A DNA stretch of 32,000 nt from Kofleriaceae bacterium. GTDB lineage: Bacteria > Myxococcota_A > Polyangia > Haliangiales > Haliangiaceae. The notes below the pieces were generated by a model, which was not told the origin of the DNA, ran no database searches, and saw only the letters and a program-made list of their open reading frames with translations. The position numbers and the translations under genes were made by a program. Location: assembly GCA_035500135.1 (NCBI GenBank), contig DATJXL010000090.1, positions 647 through 32,646 of the forward strand, written 5' to 3'. This document shows positions 5,435 through 26,819 of the stretch, in pieces; position 1 is the stretch's first letter; every line of letters starts with the position of its first letter.

Positions 5435-5971
5435 GTGCTCGCGGTCGAGGCGGCCTACGCGGCTGCCGCAGGGCGGCCCACGCCGACCGGGAAGCTCGGC
5501 GAGCTCGGTGCTGGACTGGCGTGCGCGGCCGCGGTCGCGTCGCGCTACCTCGCGGTCGGCACGCCGCGCAGCTTCGCGATCGTCGGAGACGGCCCGGGCG
5601 CGCGCGACGTGCTCGCGGCGCATCGCGCGTGGTTCGCGCCACTCGACATCCGCGTCGCGCGCGCGCCGCGCGCCGTGGCGCGCACGCGCACGGTCGAGCT
5701 CGGCGAAGCGCTCGCCGCCGACATCGTCTGCGTGTGCGAGCCGCTGCGAATCGCGGCATCGGAGCTGCGCCGAGGCACCCACGTCAACGCGCTCGCGGCC
5801 GTCGAGCTCGACGACGATCTGCGGACGCTCGCGACGATCGTCGACGAGCTGCGCGGCCTGCCCGCGCTCGCGGCCGGCCTCGTCGACGGCCGTCAGCTCG
5901 ACGAGCTCACCGTGTTTCTCGCAGGAGAAGCGGCGATCGCCCGGCACGTGCTCTGCACGTACAGCGATTAG
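5435..5971 (+). CDS. Short ornithine cyclodeaminase/mu-crystallin-like protein (only the Rossmann/C-terminal part is present)
   Basis: FAIVGDGPGARDVLAAH (G-x-G-x-x-A-like), ADIVCVCEP, GTHVNALAA and LDELTVFLAGEAAIA follow the order of motifs in the C-terminal two-thirds of OCD family proteins. The start is uncertain (GTG 5435, or CTG 5417). The frame upstream lies inside asnS. Confidence 0.45.
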   Translation: MLAVEAAYAAAAGRPTPTGKLGELGAGLACAAAVASRYLAVGTPRSFAIVGDGPGARDVLAAHRAWFAPLDIRVARAPRAVARTRTVELGEALAADIVCVCEPLRIAASELRRGTHVNALAAVELDDDLRTLATIVDELRGLPALAAGLVDGRQLDELTVFLAGEAAIARHVLCTYSD

Positions 5972-6014
5972 CCGGCACCGTAGCCGGCCGAGGGTCGATC
6001 GAAAGGAGGGTCCC

Positions 6015-6770: not shown

Positions 6771-6792
6771 ACGTGAGAGTACACTGCGTCGC

Positions 6793-7968
6793 GTGAGCGA
6801 ACGCGACGTGGACGTCGTCGTCGTCGGCGGCGGGCCGGCCGGCCTGTCGACCGCGCTTCACCTGCAGGCGGCGGCTCCGCACGCGCGGCTCGTCGTGCTC
6901 GAGGCCGAGCGCTATCCGCGCGAGAAGATCTGCGCCGGCGGCCTCGGCGCGCGCGGGCTGCGCGTGCTCGAGCGGATCGGCGTCGCGGTCGACGTGCCGA
7001 TGGTGCGTCTCGACGCGATCGCGGTGCACGTCGCGGGCGAGACCGTGGTGACGCGCTCGCCCGGGCTCGGCGTGGTCGTGCGCCGGGTCGAGTTCGATCA
7101 CGCGCTCGCGCAGCACGCGATCGCGCGCGGCATCGCCGTGCGAGACGGCTGCACGGTCACCGCGCTGCGCGTCAACGACGATCATGTCGAGCTCGACACC
7201 GCGAGCGGCGAGACCTGGCGCGCCCGCGCGGTGGTCGGAGCCGACGGTGTCGCCGGCATCGTGCGGCGCGCGGGCGGCTTTCCGCGCGGCGAGCTGCGCG
7301 CCCAGGTCGTCGAGCTCGACACCGAGGCCGCGCCCGCCGACCTGCCGCGCGACACGATCGCATTCGATTTCACCGCGCGCGACCTCCATGGCTACGCCTG
7401 GGACTTCCCGACGCTCGTGCACGGCGAGCCGCTCGTGTGCCGTGGCGTCTACGTGCTGCATCGTCTCGGCTCCGATTCACCCCGCGCGCGGGTCGATCGC
7501 TACCTCGCGGCGCGCGGGCTATCGCTCGCGCGCTATCGCCTCAAGCAGTTCGCCGAGCGCGGCTTCGAGCCCGGCGCGCCGATCGGCAAGCCGCGCGTGT
7601 TGCTCGTCGGCGAGGCCGCCGGCATCGACATCGCGACCGGCGAAGGCATCGCGCAGGCGATCGAGTATGGCGCGCTCGCCGGGCCGTACCTCGCACGCGC
7701 GCTCGCCCGCGACGACCTCGGCTTCGCGAGCTGGCGCCGCCACGTCGACGTCCACCACGTGGGCTGGCAGCTGCGCGTGCGCCACGCCTGCTATCGCATC
7801 TTCTACAGCCGCCGCCGCGCGAAGGTCGAGCGCATGCTGCCGGCGATGACCGCGCTGTTCCGCGTCGGCGTGCAGGACTTCGCCGGCCTGCCGCTGTCGA
7901 AGCTCGCGATCGCCCGCGGAGCCGCGCAGTTCGTCCGCGCGTACATCCGGGAGAACGCGCGCGACTAG
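6793..7968 (+). CDS. FAD-dependent oxidoreductase (geranylgeranyl reductase / aromatic-ring hydroxylase family)
   Basis: N-terminal dinucleotide fold VDVVVVGGGPAGLSTALHL, and later VGADGVAGIVRR and LLVGEAAGIDIATGEGI motifs. GTG start. Confidence 0.8.
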   Translation: MSERDVDVVVVGGGPAGLSTALHLQAAAPHARLVVLEAERYPREKICAGGLGARGLRVLERIGVAVDVPMVRLDAIAVHVAGETVVTRSPGLGVVVRRVEFDHALAQHAIARGIAVRDGCTVTALRVNDDHVELDTASGETWRARAVVGADGVAGIVRRAGGFPRGELRAQVVELDTEAAPADLPRDTIAFDFTARDLHGYAWDFPTLVHGEPLVCRGVYVLHRLGSDSPRARVDRYLAARGLSLARYRLKQFAERGFEPGAPIGKPRVLLVGEAAGIDIATGEGIAQAIEYGALAGPYLARALARDDLGFASWRRHVDVHHVGWQLRVRHACYRIFYSRRRAKVERMLPAMTALFRVGVQDFAGLPLSKLAIARGAAQFVRAYIRENARD

Positions 7969-9416
7969 CTGCGACGACGCCGCGCGATCAGGAAGCCGAG
8001 CGCGAGCACCATCGCGAATCCGGCGCTGCCGCCGCCGGCGGCGCAACCGCCGACGACGTCGTTGCCGCCGTCCTCGGAGATGCCGCCGCCATTGGTCCCG
8101 CTGCCCTCGCCGCTCCCGCCGGTGCCGGATCCGGAGCCCGAGCCCGAGCCCGAGCCGGTGCCGGTCGTCACGTTGAGCGCCGCGAGCGCGGTCGCGTTCG
8201 GCGTGCCGTAGCCGGTCGGGCCGTCCCAGCCGGTGCCCGCGTTGCACAGGACGTTGCCGCAGTTGCCGTTCGATCCGCTCGTCACGTCGTTGAAGATCGA
8301 CGCGTGCTGCATCACGTACGAGCCCGAGGTCTGCGCGCCGTTGCCGGTCGCCGCCCAGATCGCCGCGACGAGCGGGCTCGCCGCGCTCGTGCCGCCGACG
8401 ACCGTCCAGCCGCCGTTGTTGTAGACCGCGACGCCGGTCTGCGGATCCGCGACGGCCGCGATGTCGGTCGTCGCCTTGTACGTGCACGACGTGCTGGTCT
8501 GATACGACGGCTTCGGGACGCTCAGGCTGCACGCGCTGCCGCCGCTCGTCCACGCCGTCTCGGTCCAGCCGCGCGTGTTCGCGCTCTTCTGCAGATTCGT
8601 CCCGCCGACCGCGATCGCGTACTGCGACGTCGCCGGATAATCCGGGCCCTGGCCGCCATCGTCGTAGCCATCGTCGCCGGCCGACACGAACACCGCGACG
8701 CCGGCGTGGTTGAAGTAGGTCTCGTAGGCCGAGACCGAGCTACCGGATTGCTCGGGGCCGCCCCAGCTGTTGCTGACGACGGTCGCGCCGAGCGTCGACG
8801 GCACGTCGTTCGCGACGAACAGGCCGCTGCCTTGATCGTCGGTCGCCTGGACGACGACGATCTTGCAGCTCGGGCACGCGGCGCTGACCATGTCGACGTC
8901 GAGCGCGGTCTCGATCGTCCAGTCGTCACCCGACGGCGGCGGGCCAGGCAGCGGCGTGGTCTGGCCGCTCTGGTTCACGATCTTCAGGCAGCCGTTCGCC
9001 GTCGTGCATGCCGGCAGGCCGTATTGCGCGCGATACGCCGCGAGATCCGACTCGAGGCTCGCGTAGCCATATGCGTCGACCACCGCGACGGTCGGCGTCG
9101 TGGTCGGCACGACATGCGCCGCATCGATCCCGTAGGCCGATTGCAGATCGGCCGGGCCCCAGCCTTGCGGCGCCGCGTACGCCTTGACGTGGCCATCCTC
9201 GGTCGCGTGCACGTGCGCGAAGCAGCGCAGCGCGCCGCCGCCGCAGACCGCGCCGGTCGGAACGTCGGTAACGTGGCGTACCGGATCGAGCCGCGAGAGG
9301 TGCACCGGCGAGTCCGCACGAGCTGAGGACCCAAGCCCCAGCACGAGCCCCACCGCGAGCGGCGCAACCTGGCGAAACCCAGCGAACGTTCGGTGCAAGC
9401 GGCTGTTCGAACGCAT
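7965..9416 (-). CDS. Secreted sedolisin-like (S53) serine peptidase with Gly/Ser linker and MYXO-CTERM-like sorting tail
   Basis: Signal peptide (VAPLAVGLVLGLGSSARA). S53-like motifs: ETALDVDM, SNSWGG, SAGDDGYDD, GGTSAASP. A GTGSGSGSGSGSGTGGSGEGSG linker follows. The C-terminus GGCAAGGGSAGFAMVLALGFLIARRRRS is a Cys, a hydrophobic helix and an Arg cluster. Confidence 0.85.
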   Translation of the reverse strand: MRSNSRLHRTFAGFRQVAPLAVGLVLGLGSSARADSPVHLSRLDPVRHVTDVPTGAVCGGGALRCFAHVHATEDGHVKAYAAPQGWGPADLQSAYGIDAAHVVPTTTPTVAVVDAYGYASLESDLAAYRAQYGLPACTTANGCLKIVNQSGQTTPLPGPPPSGDDWTIETALDVDMVSAACPSCKIVVVQATDDQGSGLFVANDVPSTLGATVVSNSWGGPEQSGSSVSAYETYFNHAGVAVFVSAGDDGYDDGGQGPDYPATSQYAIAVGGTNLQKSANTRGWTETAWTSGGSACSLSVPKPSYQTSTSCTYKATTDIAAVADPQTGVAVYNNGGWTVVGGTSAASPLVAAIWAATGNGAQTSGSYVMQHASIFNDVTSGSNGNCGNVLCNAGTGWDGPTGYGTPNATALAALNVTTGTGSGSGSGSGSGTGGSGEGSGTNGGGISEDGGNDVVGGCAAGGGSAGFAMVLALGFLIARRRRS

Positions 9417-9510
9417 GTGACCGCGACGTAACTCATGATGTGTGCCAATCCCCTACGCGGATCGGCTTCACGAGTTGCGCAAAGGGCTGCGCGATTCGCC
9501 GGATAGCACG

Positions 9511-9894
9511 TCACTCGGCTGTGCGGTCGTACTGCATCGCCCCGAACAGGTTGCCTTCGGGATCCTGGAAGAACATGAGCGTGCCGACTCCGACGATCAC
9601 CGAGCGCTCGAGCAGCACCTTCCCGCCCGCCGCCTTCACCGCGGCTTCGGTCTTGTCGATCGACGGCACGCCGATCGTGCACTCGAATCCGACCGTGCGC
9701 TGGCCCGGGACGAGCTGGCGCCGGCCCTGGAGCGCGCCGAGCACGGGCGAGTCCTTCGACTCGATCATGTAGAAGCCGGGCGGGCCCCACGCGTTGAACT
9801 TCCAGCCGAACACCTTCTCGTAGAAGCCGCGCGCGCGTTCGACGTCGTCCGCGTTGATCGCGAAGTGAGCGAGCGTGTTGTTGTTGGTCATCAT
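9511..9894 (-). CDS. VOC (glyoxalase/bleomycin-resistance/dioxygenase) family protein
   Basis: 127 aa. FAINADDVERARGFYEKVFGW..., then a second beta-alpha-beta-beta-beta half ending FFQDPEGNLFG, which is typical of VOC fold proteins. Confidence 0.8.
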   Translation of the reverse strand: MMTNNNTLAHFAINADDVERARGFYEKVFGWKFNAWGPPGFYMIESKDSPVLGALQGRRQLVPGQRTVGFECTIGVPSIDKTEAAVKAAGGKVLLERSVIVGVGTLMFFQDPEGNLFGAMQYDRTAE

Positions 9895-9923
9895 GCGCGC
9901 AACCTAGCGGTTTCGGCCGTGGC

Positions 9924-10721
9924 GTGCTTACGCTAGACTGTCAAGTCGTGTCGAAAAAACGACAACCCCGCCTTCCCGACGGCCCGGTCTGGGTGCGGAC
10001 GTTTCCGGTGACGTTCCTGCACGATCAGACCTCGGAACGCCATCGCCACGACTGGCACCAGCTCACGTACGCGGTGCGGGGCCATCTCGAGGTCGTCACC
10101 GACGACGCGCGCCGGATCGTGCCGGCGGACCGCGCGGTGTGGGTGCCGGCCGGCGTCGAACACGTCGAGGTGATGCGCGCGCCGGTGTCGATGCGTTCGA
10201 TCTACGTCGCGCCGGCGGCGCTGCGCAAGAAGCCCGGCAGCTGCCGCACGATCGCGGTCACGCCGCTCCTGCGCGAGCTCGTGCTTCACGTCTCGCGCAT
10301 CGGCGCGCTCGATCGCCGCGACGGCGAGCAGGCACGGCTCGCCGCGGTGCTGCTCGATCTGCTCGCGATCGCCGAGGACGTGCCGCTCGAGCTGCGCTCG
10401 CCGCGCGATCCCCGCGCGCGCCGGTTCGCCGACCGCGTCGCGGCCGATCCCGGCGACGACACGCCGCTGCCCGAGCTCGCGCGCGCGGTCGGCTCGAGCC
10501 TGCGCACGCTCGAGCGGTGCTTTCTTGCCGACACCGGGCTCACGATCGGCGCGTGGCGCCGGCGCGTGCGGCTGTTCCACGCGGTGCGCCTGCTCGACGC
10601 CGGCCGGCCCGTCACCGAGGTCGCGCTCGACGTCGGCTACGCGACGACGAGCGCGTTCTCGGCGGCATTCACCCGCGAGCTCGGCCGGTCGCCGACCGGG
10701 CGGCGTAGAGTTGCAGCGTGA
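9924..10721 (+). CDS. AraC-family transcriptional regulator with N-terminal cupin domain
   Basis: Cupin segment (HRHDWHQLTYAVRGHLEV). The C-terminal double HTH (LPELARAVGSSLRTLERCF...GYATTSAFSAAFTRELGRSP) is present. The start is uncertain (GTG 9924 or GTG 9948). Confidence 0.85.
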   Translation: MLTLDCQVVSKKRQPRLPDGPVWVRTFPVTFLHDQTSERHRHDWHQLTYAVRGHLEVVTDDARRIVPADRAVWVPAGVEHVEVMRAPVSMRSIYVAPAALRKKPGSCRTIAVTPLLRELVLHVSRIGALDRRDGEQARLAAVLLDLLAIAEDVPLELRSPRDPRARRFADRVAADPGDDTPLPELARAVGSSLRTLERCFLADTGLTIGAWRRRVRLFHAVRLLDAGRPVTEVALDVGYATTSAFSAAFTRELGRSPTGRRRVAA

Positions 10722-11110
10722 GCGAGGAACGCGCGGCCAAGCAGGTGATCGTGATGCGCAAGGATCTCGGCATGCGCAAGGGCAAGATGATCGCGCAAGG
10801 TGCGCACGCGTCGCTCGCGGTCGTGCTCGATCGCGGCGAGATCCGCGATGGCCGCTGCGAGATCGCGCTGTCGCCCGCGCTCGAAGCCTGGCTGGCCGGC
10901 CGGTTCACGAAGGTGTGCGTCGGCGTCGAGTCCGAGGCCGAGCTCGACGCCGTGGTCGCGCGCGCGCGCGCCGCCGGCGTCCCGTGCGCGCTGATCGTCG
11001 ACGCCGGCGTCACCGAGTTTCGCGGCGTGCCGACGAAGACGTGCTGCGCGGTCGGTCCGGCGTGGAGCGACGAGGTCGACGCGATCACGGGTGCGCTGAC
11101 ACTGCTGTGA
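10718..11110 (+). CDS. Peptidyl-tRNA hydrolase, PTH2 family
   Basis: KQVIVMRKDLGMRKGKMIAQGAHAS ... KVCVGVESEAEL ... IVDAGVTEF.GVPTKTCCAVGP ... ITGALTLL matches the Pth2 family pattern. The GTG start overlaps the AraC stop (GTGA). Confidence 0.8.
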   Translation: MSEERAAKQVIVMRKDLGMRKGKMIAQGAHASLAVVLDRGEIRDGRCEIALSPALEAWLAGRFTKVCVGVESEAELDAVVARARAAGVPCALIVDAGVTEFRGVPTKTCCAVGPAWSDEVDAITGALTLL

Positions 11111-12833
11111 ACAGCACGAGCCAGCGCTGCGCCGCCGCGTGGACCTCGTCCGCGGGCGCGCCGACGTCGATGTCGACCGCGTCGCCGGTGATCCGCTGCA
11201 GCGCGCGCTTCGCGAAGTAGCGCACGAGCGGATACTCGTGCCACAGCATCGGCACGAGCGCGGCGATCGCGTCGCGCTGGTTGAAGTCGGCGAGCGTCAC
11301 GATCGCGACCGCCTGCTCGTGCGGCTTGCCGCGCTCGAGCGTCGCACGGATCGCGTTGACGGCGAGGTCGGCGCCGTACAGTCGCTGCACCGCGGCGCGA
11401 TCGTAGTGCTTGCTCCACCACGTCTCCATCGTCGTCAGCAACGACTCGACCGACTTGTCGACGTGGCACAGCGCGCACTCGAGCGGGCGATCGCGCTCGA
11501 CGCGGTTCGCATCGGTCGGCGAGCCGATGCGGTGGTAGCGATTCAACACGTAGTCGAGGCCCATGTTCTTCTTTGCCATGTGGCACGCGATGCAGCCGAC
11601 GGTCTGATGATGCGTGTGCTCGGCGCCGTGGCCGGCGTGGCACTTCTGGCAGAGCGCGTCGCCGGCGGTCGTCGCGAGCTGGGCGAGCTTCGCCGGCGAG
11701 TCCTCGGTGTGCGGATCGTGACACGCGGTGCACGCCATCTGCGATGCACAGCCGCCGAGCTGGTAGTCGCGGCCTTCGCCCGAGCTGATCGACGAGCCGC
11801 CCGGATCTCGCGCGCGTCGCTCGCCGCCCTCCCACGTCCACGGGTAGCGCGAGAACAGCACGGTGTGGCACTTCGCGCAGGTGTGGTTGATCCACTGCGC
11901 GCGCGTCCCGGTCTCGCCGCGCGGCGGCTCGAGGCCGACGAGCGAGCTCTTCGCCTCGAACGCGGGCAGCACCTCGGGCTTGGCGGCGTGCGCGCGCGAG
12001 CCGTTGTGGCAGGCCTCGCAGCCGATGCCGAGCTCGACGAGCTTGTCGCCGTCGAGCCGCTTCTCCATCGTGGTCGCGGCCGCGGCGAGCGTCGCGCGCA
12101 GGCCGTCGTCGCCGGGAGGTTGACCGCCGAGGAAGCCGATCTCGTCGTCGAGCGCGTGTGCGAGGCCGCGCTCGTCGAGCGCGTGCGCGCTCCACGTCTT
12201 GTCGTGCGGCAAGATCCGGTCCTGCATCTTGCCCTGGTAGGGCGGCAGCGTCGGCCCGTACAGCTCGTCGTAGAGCATCGTGACGAGCGGCAGCGTGTTG
12301 TGGCAGCCGATGCATTCCTTCGCCCACTCGCCGTTCCACGCCATGCGCGGCCGCTCCTTCACCATCACCGAGTAGCCCTTGTAGCGCCACGACTTCGCGG
12401 CGAACACATACGTCATCGGCAGCACGAACTCGGTCGCGCCGCCCGCGGTGTCGACGCCGACGAAGTCCTCGCGGTAGCGCCCGCCGACGACCTTCGTGAC
12501 GCGGAACCGCTTGTCGCCGGCCGGCGAATGCAGCGTGATGTAGCGCTCGCCGTTCTCGGTCTCGGCCGTGCTCGTGTCGCTGCCGACGTGCAGCGTGGCG
12601 CCATCGAACGGCGCGCGGATCGCCGCGGTCTTCGCGTCGCGCGTCATGTTGCGCATCGGCGACGCAGCCCACGCGCTGTAGACCTGGCCGTGACAGTCGC
12701 TGCACGCCGGCGAGCCGGCATAGTCGGCACGCAGCACGTTGCTGGCGAGCCCCGGACTGGGCGCCGGCTCGCGGGCAGGCGCACCGGGCGCACCGCACGC
12801 CGCGAGCACGAGGAGCCAGCGGGTGATCCGCAC
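11085..12833 (-). CDS. Multiheme (8 x CxxCH) c-type cytochrome lipoprotein with HEAT-like C-terminal segment
   Basis: Signal MRITRWLLVLAACG. Eight CxxCH motifs: CSDCH, CIGCH, CEACH, CAKCH, CTACH, CQKCH, CIACH, CALCH. The C-terminus (LVPMLWHEYPLVRYFAKRALQRI) is HEAT-repeat-like. Confidence 0.85.
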   Translation of the reverse strand: MRITRWLLVLAACGAPGAPAREPAPSPGLASNVLRADYAGSPACSDCHGQVYSAWAASPMRNMTRDAKTAAIRAPFDGATLHVGSDTSTAETENGERYITLHSPAGDKRFRVTKVVGGRYREDFVGVDTAGGATEFVLPMTYVFAAKSWRYKGYSVMVKERPRMAWNGEWAKECIGCHNTLPLVTMLYDELYGPTLPPYQGKMQDRILPHDKTWSAHALDERGLAHALDDEIGFLGGQPPGDDGLRATLAAAATTMEKRLDGDKLVELGIGCEACHNGSRAHAAKPEVLPAFEAKSSLVGLEPPRGETGTRAQWINHTCAKCHTVLFSRYPWTWEGGERRARDPGGSSISSGEGRDYQLGGCASQMACTACHDPHTEDSPAKLAQLATTAGDALCQKCHAGHGAEHTHHQTVGCIACHMAKKNMGLDYVLNRYHRIGSPTDANRVERDRPLECALCHVDKSVESLLTTMETWWSKHYDRAAVQRLYGADLAVNAIRATLERGKPHEQAVAIVTLADFNQRDAIAALVPMLWHEYPLVRYFAKRALQRITGDAVDIDVGAPADEVHAAAQRWLVLFTAVSAHP

Positions 12834-12842
12834 GCGTGCATT

Positions 12843-18135: not shown

Positions 18136-19896
18136 TCACATCGAGATCGAGCCCTTGCGGAAATCCGTGCGGCGCAGATGCACGTTCACGCACACCGGCC
18201 GGCCGGTCTTCGCGATCGCCTTGGCCTCGGCGAGCGTCGCGTCGACGCGGGCCGGGTCGGTCAGGACCAGCCCGACTCCGCCGTAGCCCGCCGCGACCTC
18301 GTGGTAGGCGCTGCGCCGCAGATCGGTGCCGAGCGACGTCCCGAGCATCTCGACCTGCTCGCGCGCGATCTGCATCCACGACGCGTCGTTGCCGATGAGC
18401 GCGATCGGCGCCACGCCGTGCCGCACGTACGTGTCGAACTCGGCGAGCGTGTACGCGCACGAGCCGTCGCCCCACAGCAGCCAGACTTCGCGGCCCGGCC
18501 GGACGAGCGACGCGCCGAGCGCGAAGCCGCCGCCGACGCCGAGCGTGCCGAACACGCCGGGATCGAGCCACGACAGGGGCGCGCGCGGCCGCACGATGTA
18601 GCTCGCGGTCGCGACGAAGTCGCCGCCGTCGACGACGAGCACGGCGTCGTCGGCCATCACCTCGTCCAGCCGCGTGAACAAGTGCACCGGATCGACGAGC
18701 TCGCCGGCCGGCGCCGCCTTCGCCGCGATCTCGGTGTCGCGCGCGCGCTCGCGCTCGCGTAGCGTCGCGAGCCACTCCGGCGATGCCGCGCCCCGTGCGG
18801 ACGGCGTTTCGCCGCGCGCGGTTGCACGCTCCGCGAGCGCGACCAGGAAGTCGCCGGCATGCATCTCGACGGCGATGTCGGGCCGGCGGTTCTTGCGCAT
18901 CTCGTCGGTCGACAGGTTCGCCGCGATCAACGTCGCCGCGCGGTTGATCCCGCGGCCGTAGCCGAGCCGGAAGTCGAACGGAAAGCCGCACACGATCACA
19001 CAATCGGCTTCCTTGAGCGCCGCGCCGCGGTGGTGGCGGAGCTGCAGCTCGTGCGTGCGGCCGAGCAACCCGCGCGCCATGCCGGCGAGATAGACCGGCA
19101 CGCCGAGCGCGCCGATCGCGCGCGCGATCCGGCCGGGATCGCGGATGCCGACGAGCGTCTGGCTTCCGACCACGAGCACCGGCTTGGTCGCGGCGCGCAC
19201 CGCGTCCGCCGCGCGCTCGAGCGCGCCGTCGCCGCGCAGGCTCGGGAGCTTCACCGGCACGTTCCACTCCGGCAGGACCGGCGCGCGAAACTGCCGGTAG
19301 AGGTGTCCGCGCACGTAGAGCTCGAGGGCCTTGCCGGCGATCCCCTTCGCCTTGCCGAGGCCCGCCTCCTTCTCGTACATCGCGCGGATCAGCTGCTCGG
19401 GATAGAGCAGATCGACCGGTACCTCGACGAACACCGGCCCGGGCACGCCGTCGAGCGCGACCGCGATCGCGCGCTCGATCGTCGGTTGCAGCCCCGGCAC
19501 GGTCTTGACCGTCGTCGCCCACTTCACGTGCGGCTTCATCAAGGTCATCTGATCGATATCCTGAAGAGAGCCGCGGCCCTTGAGCAGCGTCGCGGTCGCG
19601 CCCCCGAACAGGACGAGCGGCGTCTGCGCCATCTGCGCGTTCTTGACCGCGGTGATGGTATTGGTCACGCCGGGCCCGGCGGTGACCGCCGCGGCGCCGA
19701 TCACGCCGGTCATCCGCGCGACGGCATCGGCGGCGAACACGGCGTTGCCTTCGTCGCGGACGTCGACGACGCGGATCCCGCGTGCGTCGCAGCCGGTGAG
19801 GATCGGCGAGATATGGCCGCCGCACAGCGCGAACAGGTGCGTCACGCCATGGCGCGCGAGCACCTCCGCGATCAAGTCTCCGCCATGCCTCGTCAT
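18136..19896 (-). CDS. Thiamine-pyrophosphate enzyme, acetolactate synthase large subunit-like family
   Basis: N-terminal TPP pyrimidine-binding domain ([23 protein letters not shown]...GPGVTN). C-terminal TPP motif [32 protein letters not shown]. 586 aa. Confidence 0.9.
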
Positions 19897-19927
19897 GAGC
19901 GGTACAATAGACGCGGGCAGAGCCGAC

Positions 19928-20788
19928 GTGGCGAACCTCGTCCTGTATTCGATTCCCGCGTTTTTCGCGCTGATCGCGCTCGAGGTCGTGTGGGCGTCGC
20001 GGCATCCCGACGCGAAGGGCTACGAGAAGCGCGACACCGCAGCGAGCCTGTCGATGGGCCTGCTCAACGTGTTCATCTCGGCGGGCGCGAAGGGCCTATC
20101 GATCCCGCTGTTCGCATGGGTGTACGAGCATCGCGTCGCCGAGCTCGGCCGCGCCGACCTGTGGTGGTCGTGGATCGTGCTCCTGTTCGCCGAGGACTGC
20201 TGCTACTACTGGTTCCACCGCATCCATCACGAGGTGCGCTTCCTGTGGGCGGCTCACGTCAACCACCACTCGAGCCAGTACTTCAACTTGTCGACGGCGC
20301 TGCGCCAGACGCTCTTGACACCGTTCACGTCGCCGATCTTCTGGACGCCGCTCGCGCTGCTCGGCTTTCCGCCGTGGATGATCCTGACCGCGCAGGCGTG
20401 GAGCCTGCTGTACCAGTTCTGGCTGCACACCGAGGCGATCGACAAGCTCGGACCGATCGAGTGGGTGATGAACACGCCGTCGCATCACCGCGTGCACCAC
20501 GGCAAGAACGTGCGCTACCTCGATCGCAACCACGCCGGCATCTTCATCATCTGGGACCGCATGTTCGGAACGTTCGAGCTCGAGACCGAGCGCGTGGTCT
20601 ACGGCCTCACCAAGGACATCCACACGTTCAATCCGCTGCGAATCGGCTTCCACGAGGTCGCCGCGATCGCGCGCGACGTCGCTCGAGCCCCCACCGTGGC
20701 TGCGAAGCTCGGCTACGTGCTGGCGCCGCCGGGCTGGAGCCACGACGGGTCGACGAAGACCGCCGGCGAGCTTCGCCGCGAGCTCTGA
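19928..20788 (+). CDS. Fatty acid hydroxylase / sterol desaturase family membrane protein
   Basis: Histidine boxes HRIHHE, HVNHHSS and HHRVHHG. The start is GTG 19928 or ATG 19895. The ATG option would share a CATG with the divergent TPP gene start. Confidence 0.85.
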
Positions 20789-20836
20789 CTCGGCGTTTTG
20801 TAACACGCGGATGTTGCACTTCTCGTCCTCGTGATT

Positions 20837-20848
20837 CCAAGTACTTGG
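20837..20848. promoter_or_regulatory. Perfect 12-bp palindrome CCAAGTACTTGG, a candidate activator (UAS) site
   Basis: Read directly. It lies ~125 nt upstream of the sigma54-like -24 element. A second perfect 10-bp palindrome, GTGTGCACAC, is at 20877-20886. Confidence 0.3.
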
Positions 20849-20924
20849 ACGGTGGTAACAACGAACCCCATCTGGGGTGTGCACACTCATGCGCGATGTA
20901 GTTCGTTGTCCGCAAACTCCCCTG

Positions 20925-20942
20925 TTTTCAATTGTTTGAAAA
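20925..20942. promoter_or_regulatory. AT-rich inverted repeat TTTTCAA-TTGT-TTGAAAA containing an IHF-like site
   Basis: TTTCAATTGTTTG (20926-20938) matches the IHF consensus WATCAANNNNTTR with one mismatch. It is centred ~33 nt upstream of the -24 GG. Confidence 0.3.
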
Positions 20943-20964
20943 TGTACCTCAGGCGATCTCTGGC

Positions 20965-20979
20965 GGCACAACGGTTGCT
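20965..20979 (+). promoter_or_regulatory. Sigma54 (RpoN) -24/-12 promoter candidate
   Basis: GGCAC (20965-20969), AACGG, then TTGCT (20975-20979) matches TGGCAC-N5-TTGCW with correct spacing. Only the 5' T is replaced by C. It sits directly upstream of the 20994-25639 operon. Confidence 0.55.
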
Positions 20980-20993
20980 GTAGAGTCGGGGAC

Positions 20994-22367
20994 ATGCTGG
21001 GTGCCTTCACCTCGATTCGAGCGACTCGGTCGCCGCTGAAGTCTCGGCGGGCGATGCTCGACACGCTGCTCAAGCACTTGGATATGGTCCGGTTGTCGGT
21101 GGGGCTGGCCGGGCTGGTCCTCACCCTGGGCCTGGTGGGGTGCACCGGCCTCATCAGCGGTGACAATGGGGGTGGCGGTAGCCCGGAGGAGCAGGCGGCG
21201 ATCGATGACTGGGTCACGATGGCCTACCCCGCTCTGACGCAGGGCTCGTGCACCAGCTGCCACGGCGCCGGTACGGGTGGCGCGCCGACGTTCCTCGCCG
21301 GCGACAAGCAGCTCGACGTCCGCACCACGATCCTCGGCTTCATGCCGTCGATCCTGAACTTCGACACGCCGGCCTCGAGCACCCTGCTCACCAAGGGCGT
21401 GCACGAAGGACCGGCGCTCACCACCGATCAGTTCTCGGGCATCGTGACCTGGGTCCAGGCCGAGGCGACCGCGGCGGGCAGCGGGAGCGGCAGCGCGACC
21501 GCCGACATCACCACCGACCCGTTCCAGTTCCAGCTCTGCACCGCAGGCGTGGCCGGCGATCCGACCTGCCCGATCAACACGGTCGACATCAGCGCGCTGC
21601 CGAACGCGCCCGCGCTGACCGGCGCGAAGATCACGTTCATCGCGCAGCCGCTGTCGAACGACATCTACGTGACCGACCTCTACGCCGATACCGGCACGAG
21701 CGGCCTCTACATCGAGCATCCGCTGTTCGTCTACATCCCGCCGACCGGCACGATGTGCTCGACCGGCGAGGCGCCGCCGTGCCCGGACGACATCGATCGC
21801 TTCTCCGACGTCAAGCTCGACATGATGCCGACCGATCCGCCGACGCATATCGGCGATGGCATCGCGGCGTTCACCGGCTTCGCGCCGGTCACCGGCGCGC
21901 AGCTCCAGATCGCGTTCAAGGTCGTCGACATGTACCGGCCCGCCAGCGGCGGCGGCACCACGAACACCGGCTGCAAGGTGATGACCGGCACCAACGGCTT
22001 CTACACGACGGTCACCACCGTCATGAACGCGAAGGTCGGCGCGGCGCTGACGCCGGGCGCGATGTACTGCGAGCAGTGCCACTCGAGCACCGGCTCGAAT
22101 CCCAACATGAACGCGATGAATGCAATGAACATCAGCGGCATCGAGGGCTGTGCGACCGACACGTCGGCGACCAGCACGTGCGCCACCGCGTGCGGCCAGA
22201 TCCTCGGTCAGATCAACTTCCAGAGCATTCCTACGAGCGGCATCATCCTCGCCCCGGAGTCGGGACAGGATGCTGCTCATCCCGAGAAGTTTTCATCCAC
22301 CACCGATTTCAACACCTTCAAGACCGCACTCGTGAACTGGGCGACTGCCGAGAATTCCGCTCAATAA
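20994..22367 (+). CDS. Exported lipoprotein with two CxxCH motifs in Planctomycete-cytochrome-C-like (PSCyt-like) end domains
   Basis: Lipoprotein signal MVRLSVGLAGLVLTLGLVGC. The likely true start is ATG 21084, with alternatives at 21054 and 20994. CTSCH at 21249-21263 and CEQCH at 22068-22082. The composition is Thr/Gly/Ala/Asn-rich and Arg-poor. Confidence 0.75.
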   Translation: MLGAFTSIRATRSPLKSRRAMLDTLLKHLDMVRLSVGLAGLVLTLGLVGCTGLISGDNGGGGSPEEQAAIDDWVTMAYPALTQGSCTSCHGAGTGGAPTFLAGDKQLDVRTTILGFMPSILNFDTPASSTLLTKGVHEGPALTTDQFSGIVTWVQAEATAAGSGSGSATADITTDPFQFQLCTAGVAGDPTCPINTVDISALPNAPALTGAKITFIAQPLSNDIYVTDLYADTGTSGLYIEHPLFVYIPPTGTMCSTGEAPPCPDDIDRFSDVKLDMMPTDPPTHIGDGIAAFTGFAPVTGAQLQIAFKVVDMYRPASGGGTTNTGCKVMTGTNGFYTTVTTVMNAKVGAALTPGAMYCEQCHSSTGSNPNMNAMNAMNISGIEGCATDTSATSTCATACGQILGQINFQSIPTSGIILAPESGQDAAHPEKFSSTTDFNTFKTALVNWATAENSAQ

Positions 22368-22376
22368 AGGAGCCCC

Positions 22377-23543
22377 ATGAACAGGATCTCGACACTATTG
22401 ATGGCTGCCGCGCTGGCGGTTCCCGCTTGCAGCACCGGTGACTCCGGTAGCGGGACCGGGTCCGGCTCGGGGTCAGGTAGCGGCTCGGGCAGCGACGACC
22501 AGTACCAGCAGCTGCTCAACAACCGCGTCTACGACTACAACGCCGCGCTGAGGATCGCGTCGTTGCGGTTGACCGGCCACGTCCCATCGATGGCGGACAT
22601 CGCGCAGATCTCGAGTGCGCCCGACCAGCCGAGCCAGAAGGCGGCCTACCAGAGCCTGCTCACCAACTACATGGAGACGCCGGAGTTCTCGAACCAGATG
22701 TTCTACTTCTGGCGAGACACGTTCAAGCAAGGCGACACCGCGGTGCTCGACACCGCGCCGGCGCTCGCCGCGCAGCTCTCCGTGCAGAACGGGTCCTACA
22801 TGAACCTGTTCACGCAGGCGAGCGGCAACTGTCCGACCTACGACACGGCGACCACGACGTTCACCCCCGCCGAGTGCGGGAACGGTGGCCCGGTCGCCGG
22901 CGTGCTCACCAACCCCGGCGTGATGACGCAGTTCTACTCGAACTTCGCCTTCCGCCGCGTGCGGTGGATCCAGGAGGTCTTCGACTGCACCGCGTTCCCG
23001 GCCGAGGTCTCGGCCACGCCGGTCGATGTCGGCGGCGCCTCGCCGTACACCGGCGTGTGGCCGTTCAACTCGATCGCGAGCCCGACGAACGGCGGCGGCC
23101 GCGTCAACTTCCAGGACGTCTCCGCCGTCATCTGCGCGAACTGCCACACGACGATCAACCACCGTGCGCCGCTGTTCGCGTACTACGACATGAACGGTGC
23201 GTATCAGACGACGATCTCGGTGACGACGCCGCTCGACGGCGCGCCGCTCGCGAAGCTGTCCGACTACCTGCCGCCGGGCGAGACCACGGCGTGGAAGTAT
23301 CAGGTCCCGGCCGCCGACATCCCGTCGTTCGGCGCCGACATGGCCGCCGACCCGGCGGTCGCGCAGTGTGGCGTCGCCCGCATCTGGAACTGGGCGCTCG
23401 GCAAGACGGACATCGTCGACACGCTCCAGACCGTTCCGCCCGACACCATCGCGGACCAGGTTGCCGCGTTCACGGCCGACGGCTTCAAGCTGAAGGACCT
23501 CATCTTCGCCGTCTACACCAGCGACGACTTCACGAAGTTCTAG
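22377..23543 (+). CDS. Lipoprotein resembling the DUF1592/DUF1588/DUF1585 (PSD/PSCyt3-type) part of Planctomycete-type proteins
   Basis: SD AAGGAG (22367-22372) before ATG 22377. Signal MNRISTLLMAAALAVPAC plus a GSGTGSGSGSGSGSGS linker. The motifs are GVLTNPGVMTQFYSNFAFRRVRWIQEVFDC, ICANCHTTINHRAPLFAYYD (CxxCH 23133-23147) and the C-terminal GFKLKDLIFAVYTSDDF. Confidence 0.75.
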   Translation: MNRISTLLMAAALAVPACSTGDSGSGTGSGSGSGSGSGSDDQYQQLLNNRVYDYNAALRIASLRLTGHVPSMADIAQISSAPDQPSQKAAYQSLLTNYMETPEFSNQMFYFWRDTFKQGDTAVLDTAPALAAQLSVQNGSYMNLFTQASGNCPTYDTATTTFTPAECGNGGPVAGVLTNPGVMTQFYSNFAFRRVRWIQEVFDCTAFPAEVSATPVDVGGASPYTGVWPFNSIASPTNGGGRVNFQDVSAVICANCHTTINHRAPLFAYYDMNGAYQTTISVTTPLDGAPLAKLSDYLPPGETTAWKYQVPAADIPSFGADMAADPAVAQCGVARIWNWALGKTDIVDTLQTVPPDTIADQVAAFTADGFKLKDLIFAVYTSDDFTKF

Positions 23544-23553
23544 GAGGATGACC

Positions 23554-24234
23554 ATGACCCGCTTTGCCACACTCGCGATTCTGGCCGCGTCGGTCCTGGC
23601 ACCCGCCTGTACCGATGACCTGCCTCCCCCCAACACGCCGCCGCCGGGTTCGACCTCGGGTGGAACGAGCGACACCTTCGACCACGAGAACGATCAGATC
23701 AGCCCGTGGGATCTGCTCCAGCGCATCGAGGTCGAGGGCCCGCCGAGCTACACCTCGCATACGCACTCGTGTCCGAAGGTCCGGTACTCGAACCTCGGAT
23801 CGCTGCTGACCGACATCGGCGTCAACGCGGCGAACACCACGCAGCTGTCCGCCGGCGAGCTCTACACCGACGGCTACAACGCGCTCGGTGGTCCGAACTA
23901 CGCCAACCGCATCCGCGAGAACATCGGCATCACGATCTCCGGCGCGTCGAAAGAGTTCGACATCTTCGCCGCGGCGGCGCCTGAAGTGATGGCCGCGTTC
24001 ACGAGCACCACGACGAACGCGCTGCAGGCGCGTTGCCCGGGTGCGCAGCTGTTCGACACGTCGGGCTCGGTGCCGACGTGCCGTCCCGACGGCATCGAGT
24101 GCTTGATCGGCGTCCCGCCGCAGAGCGAGCACGTCGACTACTGCAACCTCACCATCACCAATGCTTCGACCCCGGCGGTGGGTCAGCAGCTAGCCGTCGC
24201 TGCCATCCTGGCTGCGGCTTACACCTGCGAGTAG
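23554..24234 (+). CDS. Cys-rich lipoprotein of unknown function (226 aa)
   Basis: SD AGGAGG (23542-23547) lies 6 nt before ATG 23554. ATG 23548 directly abuts the SD. Signal MTRFATLAILAASVLAPAC. Seven further Cys residues. No family recognised. Confidence 0.75.
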   Translation: MTRFATLAILAASVLAPACTDDLPPPNTPPPGSTSGGTSDTFDHENDQISPWDLLQRIEVEGPPSYTSHTHSCPKVRYSNLGSLLTDIGVNAANTTQLSAGELYTDGYNALGGPNYANRIRENIGITISGASKEFDIFAAAAPEVMAAFTSTTTNALQARCPGAQLFDTSGSVPTCRPDGIECLIGVPPQSEHVDYCNLTITNASTPAVGQQLAVAAILAAAYTCE

Positions 24235-24244
24235 GAGACCTCCC

Positions 24245-25639
24245 ATGGCGAAACACCCTTTCACCAAGCGTGACGAGCACCGCGAGCTGACGCGCCGCGC
24301 GCTCATCAAGTGGAGCGTTGCCGCGGGTGCTGCCCTCGGCGTGTCGCGGGCGAAGGTCTTCGACATCCTCGAGAAGACGGCCGGCAAGGACACCGCGTTT
24401 GCCGCGGCGACCAACCCGACGACTCGCTCGGTCCACGTCGTCGCCGGCAACGGCGGCCTGGCCTGGTTCACCCAGTTCTGGCCGTTCCCGTCGATCGCCG
24501 CCGCGAACAACGCGTCGTTCGCGTGGAACTTCCCGGGCAAGCAGGTGCTCGTCGCGGGCACCGACAAGCCGCTGTACACCGGGCCGGTCACGCCGTGGGC
24601 GACCATGGCGGCGACCCAGCAGGTGACCGTCTTCCAGTGCGGCAACAACGAGACGCACACGCAACAGCCGCAGTCGGTCGTCGGCCTCAACGGCAGCAAC
24701 ATCTTCTCGGTCGCGAGCGCGCTGCAGTCGGCGTCGCCGTCGGTGATCCCGCTGGTGACGATCGGCAACGTCGACGTCGGCACGGCAGCCGGCGCCGCCA
24801 CACCCGCGAACGTGACGGCGGCCACCGGCATCGTCGATCTGTTCAACAGCGCCGCGTCTCGCGCGGGCGGCCTGCTGTCGAAGACGTCGGACGCGCAGCT
24901 GTACAAGGCGCACTACGACGCGTTCACGCAGCTCAACCGCGCGGCGGGAACGTCGACGACGAAGCTCGCGTACACCACGGCTTCGGGCGCGGCCGGATTC
25001 CTCGGCACGAACCTGTCGGCGAAGCTGGCGATCACGGCCGCGGACAACACGCGGTACGGCATCACCAGCACGACGCGCTCGAACGTCGCGGCCATCGGCC
25101 AGGCGTTCATCATCGGGGCGAAGTCATTCGCCATGGGGCTCACGAACTCCATCGTGTTGCCCGCGATGGACGACGACCCGCACGGCGCGTTCGACGGCGG
25201 CGACATCAACATCGTCCCGCAGCAGCTGACGTCGATCTTCAACGCGTTCATGGCCGACCTCAACGGCATGACCGACCCGGTCACGATGGAGAACCTGTGG
25301 AGCGACACCGTGATCACGATCCACGGTGACACCCACAAGGATCCGATCACGCCGGCTGGCTGGCCCGACGGCACGGCGAACAACTCGAACACGGTCTACG
25401 TGTACGGCGCCGGCCACTTGTTGTCGGGCTGGTTCGGAGACTACACGAGCGCCAACGGCGGCACCGCGGTGGGGTTCGACCAGAACGGCGCCGCGGCGAC
25501 GTACAACGGCACCAACCAGGCCAAGTACGCGATGGCCGCGATCGCGTACGCCATCGCGAAACGCGACAGCCGTGCGATCTCGCAGTTCGCGAACGGCATC
25601 AACATCTCGGGGGTGTTCGGCCGCCCGCAGACGATGTGA
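24245..25639 (+). CDS. Tat-signal exported protein, possibly DUF1552 (HXXSHH)/DUF1501-like
   Basis: SD AGGAG (24233-24237) before ATG 24245. Twin-arginine motif LTRRALIKW, then a hydrophobic stretch and SRA. HGDTHK at 25322-25339 is reminiscent of the HXXSHH signature. 464 aa, Thr/Ala/Asn/Gly-rich. Confidence 0.75.
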   Translation: MAKHPFTKRDEHRELTRRALIKWSVAAGAALGVSRAKVFDILEKTAGKDTAFAAATNPTTRSVHVVAGNGGLAWFTQFWPFPSIAAANNASFAWNFPGKQVLVAGTDKPLYTGPVTPWATMAATQQVTVFQCGNNETHTQQPQSVVGLNGSNIFSVASALQSASPSVIPLVTIGNVDVGTAAGAATPANVTAATGIVDLFNSAASRAGGLLSKTSDAQLYKAHYDAFTQLNRAAGTSTTKLAYTTASGAAGFLGTNLSAKLAITAADNTRYGITSTTRSNVAAIGQAFIIGAKSFAMGLTNSIVLPAMDDDPHGAFDGGDINIVPQQLTSIFNAFMADLNGMTDPVTMENLWSDTVITIHGDTHKDPITPAGWPDGTANNSNTVYVYGAGHLLSGWFGDYTSANGGTAVGFDQNGAAATYNGTNQAKYAMAAIAYAIAKRDSRAISQFANGINISGVFGRPQTM

Positions 25640-25668
25640 GCTTCGCGGTTTCCTTGCTACGCTAGGGC

Positions 25669-26295
25669 GTGACCGGGTCGCGGGTCCTCGCCCTAGCGTT
25701 TGTTGTTTTCGGCGCGCTGGCGTGCGGGCACAAGGACAATGCGCAGGGCGATCCGACCGCGCGCGCCGGCTCGGACGACCTCGCGGGCGAGCAGCAGAAG
25801 TTCGATGCCGAGCGCCGGCCCGATCAGGTCGTGACCGCGATGGGGATCGGCCCCGGCTCGCGTGTCGCCGACATCGGCGCCGGCTCGGGCCTTCTGACCG
25901 TGCACCTCGCGCGCGCGGTCGCGCCGGACGGCCGCGTGGTCGCGACCGATATCGATCAGGGCGTGCTCGACCTGCTCGGCAAGCGGATGACGGCGATGGG
26001 GTTCGGCCAGGTGGTCCAGCCCAAGCTCGTCTCGGCCGACGCGCCCGGCCTCGAGGACCACGCGTACGACGCGATCCTGCTCGCCGAGGTCGATCATTAC
26101 TTCCAGGATCCGGTCGCGTGGCTGAAGGCGGCCACCGCCGCGCTCAAGCCGGGCGGCCGCATCGTGATCTCGAACCGCATCTACCATCGCGCGCAGTCGA
26201 TGGAGGCCGCGCGCAAGGCCGGGCTCGTGCTCAAGAGCGAATCCGAGCCGGTTCCCACCCACTTCGTCGCCGTGTTCACCGCCCCCGAAACGTGA
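25669..26295 (+). CDS. Class I SAM-dependent methyltransferase fold protein with N-terminal signal/lipoprotein peptide
   Basis: GTG start. MTGSRVLALAFVVFGALACGHKD is signal-like. SAM motif I is VADIGAGSGLLTVHLA, followed by VVATDID and LKPGGRIVIS. Confidence 0.8.
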   Translation: MTGSRVLALAFVVFGALACGHKDNAQGDPTARAGSDDLAGEQQKFDAERRPDQVVTAMGIGPGSRVADIGAGSGLLTVHLARAVAPDGRVVATDIDQGVLDLLGKRMTAMGFGQVVQPKLVSADAPGLEDHAYDAILLAEVDHYFQDPVAWLKAATAALKPGGRIVISNRIYHRAQSMEAARKAGLVLKSESEPVPTHFVAVFTAPET

Positions 26296-26303
26296 GGCTC
26301 ACC

Positions 26304-26441
26304 ATGAGAAGCGCAACGTGCTTGGTCGTGCTGTTGGCCGGTTGCCCCGGCCCCGAAGGCAACCCGAAGGTCCTGTGGCTCGCACCCGACATGGCCGAGA
26401 CCGCGGTCAAGCTGGTCGATACCGAACCTCCGCCGTTTTGA
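26304..26441 (+). CDS. 45-codon lipoprotein-signal ORF ending at an in-frame TGA. It is probably the 5' part of the next ORF.
   Basis: SD GAGG (26293-26296) lies 7 nt before ATG 26304. MRSATCLVVLLAGCPGPEG has a lipobox LLAGC. Stop TGA at 26439-26441. It is in the same frame as 26499..26819 and no other stop lies between them. Confidence 0.4.
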   Translation: MRSATCLVVLLAGCPGPEGNPKVLWLAPDMAETAVKLVDTEPPPF

Positions 26442-26498
26442 GCGCCCGGTGTCGGGGCCGGTGGCTCCGAGGAGGCAGCGTACACGCTCAAGGCAGGA

Positions 26499-26819
26499 GT
26501 GCCGGCGGGCACGTATCACCTCGTCCTCGACGCGGTGATCACGGGCTCGGTCGACGTCACGTTCGATCTGATCTGGCGGCGCAGCACGACCGACATGGAG
26601 CTCGCGAACTGGACCGAGCACTACGACCCGCTCGGCGGCGGCAACTACGACGCCCAGCCGTTCGAGTACGACGAAGACGCGATGGCGATCGACTGGAAGA
26701 GCGGCGACCAGCTCGTGTTCCGCTACACCGGCGCGAACGCGACCGTCAACGAGGCGTACATCCCGAACGGCGACGGCGTGAACTCGAAGGGCCGCGATCC
26801 GAACATCACTCTTCCGTGA
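26499..26819 (+). CDS. Hypothetical beta-rich domain protein, with no signal peptide of its own if started here
   Basis: GTG 26499 is the only start candidate in this frame after the TGA, and it has no spaced SD. A coding-like frame already runs from 26442 (APGVGAGGSEEAAYTLKAG-VPAGTYHLVLDAV...). Confidence 0.5.
   Translation: MPAGTYHLVLDAVITGSVDVTFDLIWRRSTTDMELANWTEHYDPLGGGNYDAQPFEYDEDAMAIDWKSGDQLVFRYTGANATVNEAYIPNGDGVNSKGRDPNITLP

Follow-up and report, generated by a model that had tools for sequence, protein, structure and literature searches.

What kind of extracytoplasmic machinery is encoded by the four tightly packed genes at positions 20994 to 25639 of a 32,000-nucleotide stretch of a Kofleriaceae genome? 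The stretch, called the window below, is the whole of the DNA analyzed and belongs to a metagenome-assembled genome (MAG) of the Myxococcota (assembly GCA_035500135.1, contig DATJXL010000090.1). We refer to the genes as g1, g2, g3 and g4; the products of g4 and g3 are identical to the deposited hypothetical proteins VMJ10_09940 and VMJ10_09935. An initial annotation, made from the DNA letters alone, had likened the cluster to pairs of Planctomycete-type cytochrome (PSCyt/PSD) proteins and exported partners with a twin-arginine (Tat) signal. The reading that we favor, with moderate confidence, is that sigma-54 controls the four genes as one operon and that they encode a heme/metal complex outside the cytoplasm, tethered by lipoproteins, in which the products of g2, g3 and g4 would form the core and that of g1 would be the electron link. 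PSCyt/PSD proteins and their Tat-signal partners have been stated to be of unknown function (PMC3542564, 2012; PMC5615132, 2017). We found no function described for PSCyt/PSD, DUF1501, DUF1552 or DUF1800 proteins in the literature that we searched, in agreement with what the initial annotation had said of this pairing of families.

All four open reading frames (ORFs) lie co-oriented on the plus strand. The gaps between them are 9, 4 and 10 nucleotides (nt), and the second becomes 10 nt when g3 is counted from its second ATG; the uniform spacing of 9-10 nt originally noted is thus correct for the first and last gaps, and for the middle one only from that ATG. Shine-Dalgarno (SD) sequences precede the last three genes, as had been noted (AAGGAG before g2, AGGAGG before g3 and AGGAG before g4), and no SD site was found upstream of g1. 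Many overlapping ORFs are present in other frames, which is a usual by-product of a G+C content of 68-70%; the coding signature at third codon positions is confined to the four named frames. The peculiar composition of the products, rich in Thr, Ser, Gly, Asn and Ala and poor in Arg, was borne out by comparison with nine neighboring genes: the five residues together account for 43-50% in the g1-g4 products versus 29-39% in those of the neighbors, and Arg for 1.8-3.1% versus 4.2-9.6%.

We examined the genomic neighborhoods of g4 relatives in other bacteria. A scan of one genome per species yielded 159 relatives of g4, and 80 loci were kept, almost all of them from Kofleriaceae, Haliangiales or Myxococcota MAGs; a scan of metagenomes added 80 further loci. 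Gene order in these loci was read by tblastn and profile searches. The order g1-g2-g3-g4 was found in most related loci, with median intergenic gaps of 9, 11 and 11 nt. Where enough flanking sequence was available, a g4 of the Tat-exported type had g3 immediately upstream in 117 of 119 loci, g2 upstream within 1.5 kb in 109 of 111, and g1 upstream in 91 of 96, so that the neighborhood analysis suggested by the initial annotation describes a conserved, co-oriented module. The module occurs in at least two bacterial clades. One clade shares the flanks of the window, where the module is preceded by a gene for a fatty-acid hydroxylase and followed by one for a methyltransferase; the other, more divergent clade has different flanks, no methyltransferase gene and a differently built g1. 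Since the order holds where the flanks differ, we conclude that the four genes are themselves a conserved unit and not simply part of a conserved neighborhood.

The gene that ties this unit to a known protein group is g2 (22377-23543, plus strand), which encodes an all-alpha lipoprotein of 388 amino acids with a single CxxCH motif. Its lipobox Cys (Cys18, 22428-22430) is followed by a Gly/Ser linker, and the motif itself, CANCH (C253/C256/H257, 23133-23147), is followed by TTINH. The lipobox Cys and CANCH are each kept in 76 of 76 homologs, and His262 and four further Cys residues (C152, C167, C204 and C331) are also invariant. PSCyt2 (DUF1549, PF07583) is matched by all 26 homologs searched, with a best E-value of 1.4e-8; the window protein scores 29.8 bits, which is exactly the gathering score, over a partial match covering positions 15-89 of the 209 in the profile, in its N-terminal part. 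PSCyt3 (DUF1588, PF07627) is matched around the CxxCH motif in 24 of 26 homologs at E<=0.1 (best 3.8e-7), and PSD2 (DUF1585, PF07624) at the C-terminus in 23 of 26 (best 8.9e-6). The window protein itself reaches 16.5 bits against PSCyt3 and, over residues 323-385, 15.5 bits against PSD2, below the respective cut-offs of 27 and 25.8 bits. A phage-borne copy of g2, one of those described below, passes the cut-offs of both PSCyt2 (29.9 bits) and PSCyt3 (28.8 bits over profile positions 3-96 of 98). Some g2 homologs are already annotated publicly as DUF1549 or DUF1588.

By these profile matches g2 is, at the family level, a compact and lipoprotein-anchored member of the Planctomycete PSCyt/PSD superfamily. 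The domain order DUF1592-DUF1588-DUF1585 first proposed for it stands for the last two domains. DUF1592 was not found; together with DUF1587 and DUF1595 (PSD4, PSD3 and PSD5 for the three families), it gave no match at E<=0.1 in the 26 homologs of g2 or in 25 homologs of g1. These three are the N-terminal domains of classical PSCyt3 proteins. The AlphaFold model of g2, built on a shallow alignment (65-76% identity), is mostly helical with a predicted local distance difference test (pLDDT) score of 79.5. A fold search of PDB with this model returned no match at E<1, and sequence and profile searches of PDB returned no relative.

Three minor features of the g2 family were also seen. In six homologs (P0131, P0169, P0239 and those of loci L054, L059 and L076) the Gly/Ser linker after the lipobox gives way to a small insert with four Cys residues, CG(D/N)G(V/I)C...(E/S)xSCPxDC. 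The Pfam peroxidase family (PF00141) is weakly matched by 5 of the 26 homologs, with a best E-value of 9e-4. The g2 of L122, a contig from a viral collection (positions 5907-7079), has a weak match to DUF1800 over residues 314-388 (E 0.001). DUF1800 is another usual neighbor of DUF1501.

The extra Cys-rich lipoprotein noticed in the initial annotation is the product of g3, which ends at 24234 on the plus strand and starts at 23548 or at 23554, the annotated start, to give 228 or 226 amino acids. The lipobox Cys (23608-23610) and six further Cys residues (C73, C161, C176, C183, C197 and C225) are present in 79 of 79 homologs, and two His residues are invariant as well. The six Cys likely form three disulfides. 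The family comprises 705 homolog clusters, in none of which a Pfam domain was detected; sequence and profile searches against PDB gave no match, and profile comparison by hhalign found no relationship of g3 to g1 or g2.

The product of g4 (24245-25639, plus strand) is a protein of 464 amino acids with the Tat signal TRRALIK (24290-24310) that the initial annotation had recognized. The twin Arg is invariant across diverse homologs, and the wider pattern [ST]RRx[LFIV][ILFV]K is present in 70 of 81. Its family is large: the homologs fall into 820 clusters at 90% identity, and 311 representatives remain at 50%. No Pfam domain was found in any of these. DUF1552 (PF07586) and DUF1501 (PF07394) were matched by 0 of 70 diverse homologs at E<=0.1, and the family consensus matched nothing in Pfam at E<=10. 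The motif HGDTHK (25322-25339) had been compared with the HXXSHH signature of DUF1552, a comparison that fails: His360 is present in 41 of 81 homologs and His364 in 3 of 81, and the conserved core is G-D-T-x-K. Because there is no match to DUF1552 or DUF1501 and because these histidines are not conserved, g4 is, on sequence grounds, a separate family and no demonstrated member of DUF1552. It is nevertheless the Tat-exported partner by position and signal: the twin-arginine signal and the g2 gene within 1.5 kb upstream fit the functional place of a DUF1501/DUF1552-type protein.

The residues that are invariant or nearly so in g4 are G70, P80, H138 within NETHT, D311-P312-H313 within DDPHG, G361-D362-T363-x-K365 and W373/D375. 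The corresponding window motifs are NNETHT (24644-24661), DDPHGA (25172-25189) and the HGDTHK motif above. The structural model (pLDDT 89.9) has an alpha/beta core, in which NETHT, DDPHG and GDTxK come after strands 128-134, 300-306 and 355-361, and a helical insertion of roughly 100 residues at 194-296. All 50 matches listed in a Foldseek search against PDB belong to the alkaline-phosphatase superfamily (LtaS, sulfatases, ENPP/autotaxin and YejM), the best whole-domain matches being LtaS, LtaP and YejM, and none of them is significant individually. This uniform outcome is suggestive of a very divergent alkaline-phosphatase-like fold and does not prove it. The conserved Asp, His and Thr motifs follow core strands, as the metal ligands of the superfamily do, whereas the absence of a sequence match, the lack of a clear ligand or nucleophile after strand 1 and the helical insertion set g4 apart from that superfamily.

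In a sister group of g4 relatives (L085-L099, L101-L103, L107, L112, L134 and L163) the Tat signal is replaced by a lipoprotein signal, together with a low-complexity linker and a Cys conserved in the motif 'LPEC-AQR'. Genes of this lipoprotein type stand alone, adjoining g2 in 0 of 6 loci and g3 in 0 of 13. Tat export therefore goes with membership in the module.

The first gene, g1 (20994-22367, plus strand), encodes a class-I-like c-type cytochrome lipoprotein of 457 amino acids with two heme motifs. Two homologous heme domains lie on either side of a central domain; their relationship is supported by hhalign with a probability of 97.4% (E 9e-12). The lipobox Cys (Cys50, 21141-21143) is kept in 68 of 68 homologs, which together with g2 and g3 completes the set of three lipoprotein signals named by the initial annotation; in the lipoproteins, low-complexity linkers come after this Cys. 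The first CxxCH motif (CTSCH, C86/C89/H90, 21249-21263) is likewise kept in 68 of 68, and in the second (CEQCH, 22068-22082) C362 and H363 are kept in 67 of 68 and C359 in 56 of 68. Conservation of CxxCH among homologs had been singled out beforehand as a decisive test, and it is found throughout for the first motif of g1 and for that of g2. H137 (61 of 68) and H429 (67 of 68) map to aligned Hx-GP and HP segments of the two heme domains; because they align, the hemes are probably His/His-ligated, with these two residues as the likely distal ligands.

The earlier statement that both terminal domains of g1 carry CxxCH is correct, and the resemblance to PSCyt that went with it was not found: PSCyt1 (PF07635) is matched by 0 of 25 homologs. 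The only Pfam matches are to generic cytochrome c families (Cytochrome_CBB3 in 22 of 25 and Cytochrom_C in 9 of 25), and searches of PDB gave nothing significant for g1, whose profile aligns weakly with cytochrome c6 over a full domain (E 0.17). By hhalign the g1 domains show no relationship to g2 (probability below 10%). The profile hidden Markov model searches recommended at the outset thus place g2 in the PSCyt/PSD families, g1 in generic cytochrome c only and g4 in no family. Among the genes of the module g1 is the least conserved, with 28-44% identity for most homologs and 72% in the closest relative (locus L005), as compared with 51-87% for g2 and 48-84% for g4.

The promoter announced for the cluster was confirmed by comparison between loci. 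A sigma-54-type element (-24 GG/-12 GC), CGGCACAACGGTTGC, occupies 20964-20978 on the plus strand, ends 15 nt before the ATG of g1 and has one mismatch to TGGCAC-N5-TTGC; taken within the window alone it is not significant. At a fixed 13-17 nt before the g1 ATG, the motif GG[CT][AG][CT]-N5-[TC]TGC is found in 53 of the 55 related loci from genomes and in 12 of the 25 more divergent loci from metagenomes; its background frequency is 0.15 per kb on each strand. This conservation supports sigma-54 dependence of the operon, and since the element sits at a conserved distance from the first ATG of g1, it fixes the start of this gene at 20994. The position of the -12 element 13-17 nt before the ATG would make the transcript leaderless or nearly so, and a predicted leader of no more than about 5 nt fits the lack of an SD site before g1. 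A (nearly) leaderless transcript is unusual for a sigma-54 promoter. No gene for an enhancer-binding protein (Sigma54_activat) was found among ten other ORFs of the window that were scanned. A scan of positions 20000-26500 found no sigma-70-like promoter, and the sole terminator-like site that it found (20865-20878, minus strand) lies upstream of g1, outside the operon.

Copies of g2-g3-g4 were also identified on phage DNA. In four freshwater contigs of low G+C content (L116, L117, L122 and L124) the three genes occur without g1, and their neighbors match phage families. A scan of a viral collection found g2-g3-g4 alone in three contigs, two of which correspond to contigs just named (L165/L122 and L166/L124). 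The third, L167 (IMGVR_UViG_3300034101_006325), is 200,303 bp long and encodes g2-g3-g4 at 8075-11380. A gene for a major head protein (phrog_138, E 1.7e-73) lies 2.3 kb upstream of the three genes, others for an HNH endonuclease and for virion structural proteins are close by, and a gene for a small membrane protein adjoins the module. The phage proteins retain the lipobox Cys, CANCH, all Cys residues, the RR motif, DDPHGAF and GDTPK. The g4 protein of the phages shares 62-68% identity with its counterparts in the divergent bacterial clade and 40% with the window protein. Neither g1 nor the methyltransferase gene accompanies these copies. Scans with Kofleriaceae-type and lipoprotein-type g4 alignments found no further viral copies, and tblastn of a plasmid collection with g2 or g4 gave no match. 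Because g2-g3-g4 is carried alone in viral contigs with its motifs intact, we regard it as a mobile, self-contained unit. Its viral carriage suggests that the core can work alone in a foreign host and confers a selective benefit during infection, and phage carriage is new information on modules of the PSCyt/PSD type.

How the four products might work together can be outlined on this basis. The g4 protein would be the metal-binding and probably catalytic subunit, alkaline-phosphatase-like and divergent, exported by Tat in a folded and presumably metal-loaded state, with its conserved His, Asp, Thr and Lys motifs placed at the C-terminal ends of core beta-strands. The g2 protein, to which heme is predicted to be attached, would be its c-type heme partner, in the role supposed for the large 'Planctomycete cytochrome' next to DUF1501 and DUF1552 proteins, and g3 would add a disulfide-rich lipoprotein subunit to the core. 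The g1 protein, a putative carrier of two hemes and the most variable component, could act as an accessory electron link between the core heme and a periplasmic electron pool. The favored substrate of g4 would be a phospho- or sulfo-ester-like or envelope-derived compound, whose turnover may be coupled to, or gated by, the heme of g2. We infer the assembly of g2, g3 and g4 into one complex, the binding of metal by g4 and the direction and role of electron transfer from the features described above; the lipoproteins would presumably be sorted to the outer membrane.

Several observations weigh against this outline. The phage copies lack g1, which means that the core can do without electrons delivered by g1. 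Searches of PDB with g4 by sequence and profile found nothing significant, and the Foldseek matches do not reach significance either, with a best E-value of 0.018, none at or below 0.001, and template modeling scores of about 0.25-0.36. Enzymes of the alkaline-phosphatase superfamily have a metal ligand directly after the first core strand; in g4 this strand is followed by AGNGGL, with no acidic or nucleophilic residue seen directly after it. To our knowledge, hydrolases of this superfamily normally need no cytochromes. The existence of solitary g4 relatives exported as Sec-dependent lipoproteins means that the family as a whole requires neither Tat on account of a cofactor nor partners. Two apparent g3-g4 fusions (P0461 and P0448) were rejected as frameshifted ORF calls; because their junctions are Arg-rich out-of-frame translation, they were dropped as Rosetta-stone evidence for the association of the two proteins.

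Other explanations have to be weighed against the same observations. The locus may be a split form of a classical DUF1592-DUF1588-DUF1585 protein, with g1 and g2 as its fragments and g4 as a true homolog of DUF1552 or DUF1501, an explanation that we consider possible and yet somewhat unlikely. PSCyt3 and PSD2 are matched in g2 in the right order; a Tat signal and a place downstream, as a partner of this kind should have, are both seen in g4; and its weak fold matches all fall within the alkaline-phosphatase superfamily, in which DUF1501 is placed. Genes encoding PSCyt2 and PSCyt3 are reported to adjoin two families of unknown genes (PMC5615132), four-gene clusters with DUF1501 are known in the Planctomycetes-Verrucomicrobia-Chlamydiae superphylum (Kamneva et al. 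2012, PMC3542564), and the weak match to DUF1800 in the viral g2 would fit as well. What speaks for a separate system is that 70 g4 homologs and their consensus match neither DUF1552 nor DUF1501, that the HXXSHH-like histidines vary, that DUF1592, DUF1587, DUF1595 and PSCyt1 are matched in neither g1 nor g2, and that g1 is a duplicated generic cytochrome c and not a fragment of the g2 type. It is also unlikely, in our judgment, that the module serves nutrient scavenging, with g4 as a Tat-exported phospho- or sulfo-esterase comparable to Tat-dependent phosphatases, g2 and g3 as anchoring or substrate-binding proteins, and hemes that are structural or regulatory and take no part in catalytic electron transfer. 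The fold matches of g4 would agree with an esterase, phages carry the core in the manner of auxiliary metabolic genes, g1 is dispensable in the phage copies and in some paralogous ones, and sigma-54 control would be in keeping with nutrient-limitation regulons. However, the CxxCH motif of g2 and both of those of g1 are almost perfectly conserved and g1 co-occurs in 91 of the 96 bacterial loci, while the fold matches are individually not significant and strand 1 of g4 is followed by no obvious nucleophile or first metal ligand.

The similarity of g4 to LtaS, LtaP and YejM, its best whole-domain fold matches, also raises the idea that it acts on an envelope lipid or polymer as LtaS, EptA and YejM do and that in phages the module remodels the surface of the host cell, one use of which could be superinfection exclusion. 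Lipoproteins are its only partners, the phage module is located among structural genes beside a small membrane protein gene, and a fatty-acid hydroxylase gene lies upstream in the Kofleriaceae clade. LtaS, EptA and YejM have a membrane domain, however, and g4 has none, and the synteny with the hydroxylase is lineage-specific; we consider an envelope-modifying role very unlikely. That four functionally unrelated exported proteins merely share an operon is scarcely credible, given that order and tight spacing are kept across two clades with different flanks and that viral contigs carry the core as one unit. A bolder version of the favored heme/metal complex would have g4 found a new, redox-coupled branch of alkaline-phosphatase-like proteins, whose metal center exchanges electrons with the heme of g2, and with g1 where it is present, so that the core would be an unrecognized extracytoplasmic oxidoreductase and a phage-spread auxiliary metabolic module. 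We regard this version as decidedly unlikely. If it were true, the core might oxidize a reduced phosphorus or sulfur compound or an envelope or polymer substrate, and it would provide a mechanistic template for the expanded gene pairs of PSCyt/PSD with DUF1501 or DUF1552, and of DUF1800 with DUF1501.

The relationship of the module to described systems can be specified further. It resembles the systems of PSCyt3/PSD2 and DUF1552 proteins of Planctomycetota, Verrucomicrobiota and others in several respects: the PSCyt3 and PSD2 matches of g2 come in the order seen there, its CxxCH is conserved, a protein with a Tat signal is encoded downstream, every product is exported, and no function has been reported. 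Unlike the PSCyt3/PSD2 proteins, g2 has just 388 residues without DUF1587, DUF1595 or DUF1592, and at its N-terminal end it is similar to the beginning of PSCyt2/DUF1549. Further differences from those systems are the lack of a DUF1552 match in g4, the presence of g3 between the members of the pair and of a separate diheme g1 upstream, and the lipoprotein nature of all three Sec-exported products; no classical PSCyt3/DUF1552 pair was found in the approximately 1.7 Mb of loci. With the PSCyt1/PSCyt2/PSD1 and DUF1501 modules (PMC3542564) the locus shares conserved clusters of several genes in which putative cytochrome-motif proteins are paired with one that has a twin-arginine signal, and the N-terminal region of g2 matches PSCyt2 at the gathering score. 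It differs from them in the absence of matches to PSCyt1, PSD1 and DUF1501, in its host (Kofleriaceae/Haliangiales) and in its set of subunits.

A working analogy for g1, and the only experimental hint found in the literature searched, is provided by Cbp2D of Cellvibrio japonicus, a protein with a DUF1587 domain, whose X183 cytochrome domain was shown to donate electrons to an extracytoplasmic lytic polysaccharide monooxygenase (LPMO) (Branch et al. 2021, PMC8981238). The X183 and X132 domains of Cbp2D are single-CxxCH, class-I-like cytochrome domains in an exported protein and are associated with a Planctomycete-type PSD domain. In contrast to them, g1 has two homologous heme domains, each with a conserved His as the likely distal ligand, and the two are likened by analogy and not by sequence. 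No LPMO gene was seen among the ORFs examined in the window.

PSCyt/PSD proteins and their Tat partners are recurrent and expanded families in Planctomycetota and Verrucomicrobiota, and the locus is a minimal version of such a system: a heme lipoprotein of 388 amino acids with PSCyt2/3-PSD2 character, two partner families without a Pfam model and one dedicated cytochrome. What is known here is the type of system, an uncharacterized PSCyt/PSD one; what is new are the two families without a Pfam model (g3 and g4) and a g2 fold without solved relatives. The sigma-54 input and the hundreds of natural variants make the module tractable for the prediction of complex structures and for biochemistry.

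Downstream of the four genes, after 29 nt, a methyltransferase gene (25669-26295, plus strand) encodes a protein with a class-I fold of S-adenosylmethionine-dependent methyltransferases (Pfam Methyltransf_12/11/25) and a lipoprotein signal. It follows the module in most loci of the Kofleriaceae clade, from which 72 complete copies were extracted, and is absent from the divergent clade and the phage copies. The lipobox Cys is kept in 72 of 73 homologs and the motif DIGAGSG is retained. From its motifs the product looks like an exported methyltransferase-like lipoprotein, and its gene is a possible fifth, lineage-specific member of the operon.

Directly upstream of the operon, a gene for a thiamine-diphosphate enzyme (18136-19896, minus strand) and the fatty-acid hydroxylase gene (19925-20788, plus strand) form a divergent pair that is syntenic within the Kofleriaceae clade and is reminiscent of a pair for 2-hydroxylation and 2-hydroxyacyl-CoA lyase (alpha-oxidation). 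In some genomes second copies of parts of the module are present: in L057 and L059 (6000-9400) a Ser/Thr protein kinase gene takes the place of g1 ahead of g2-g3-g4, and in L034 and L049 (8001-9400) the second copy is a solitary Tat-type g4. A 3.4 kb contig (L076, JBBRPC010000329.1) that was binned as Acidimicrobiia carries a fragment of the module 56-63% identical to the Kofleriaceae genes, and its label is probably a binning error. Finally, a multiheme cytochrome of 585 amino acids (Cytochrome_C7, Paired_CXXCH_1) is encoded at 11085-12842 on the minus strand of the window, about 8 kb upstream, and a similar gene is located near the module in L003.

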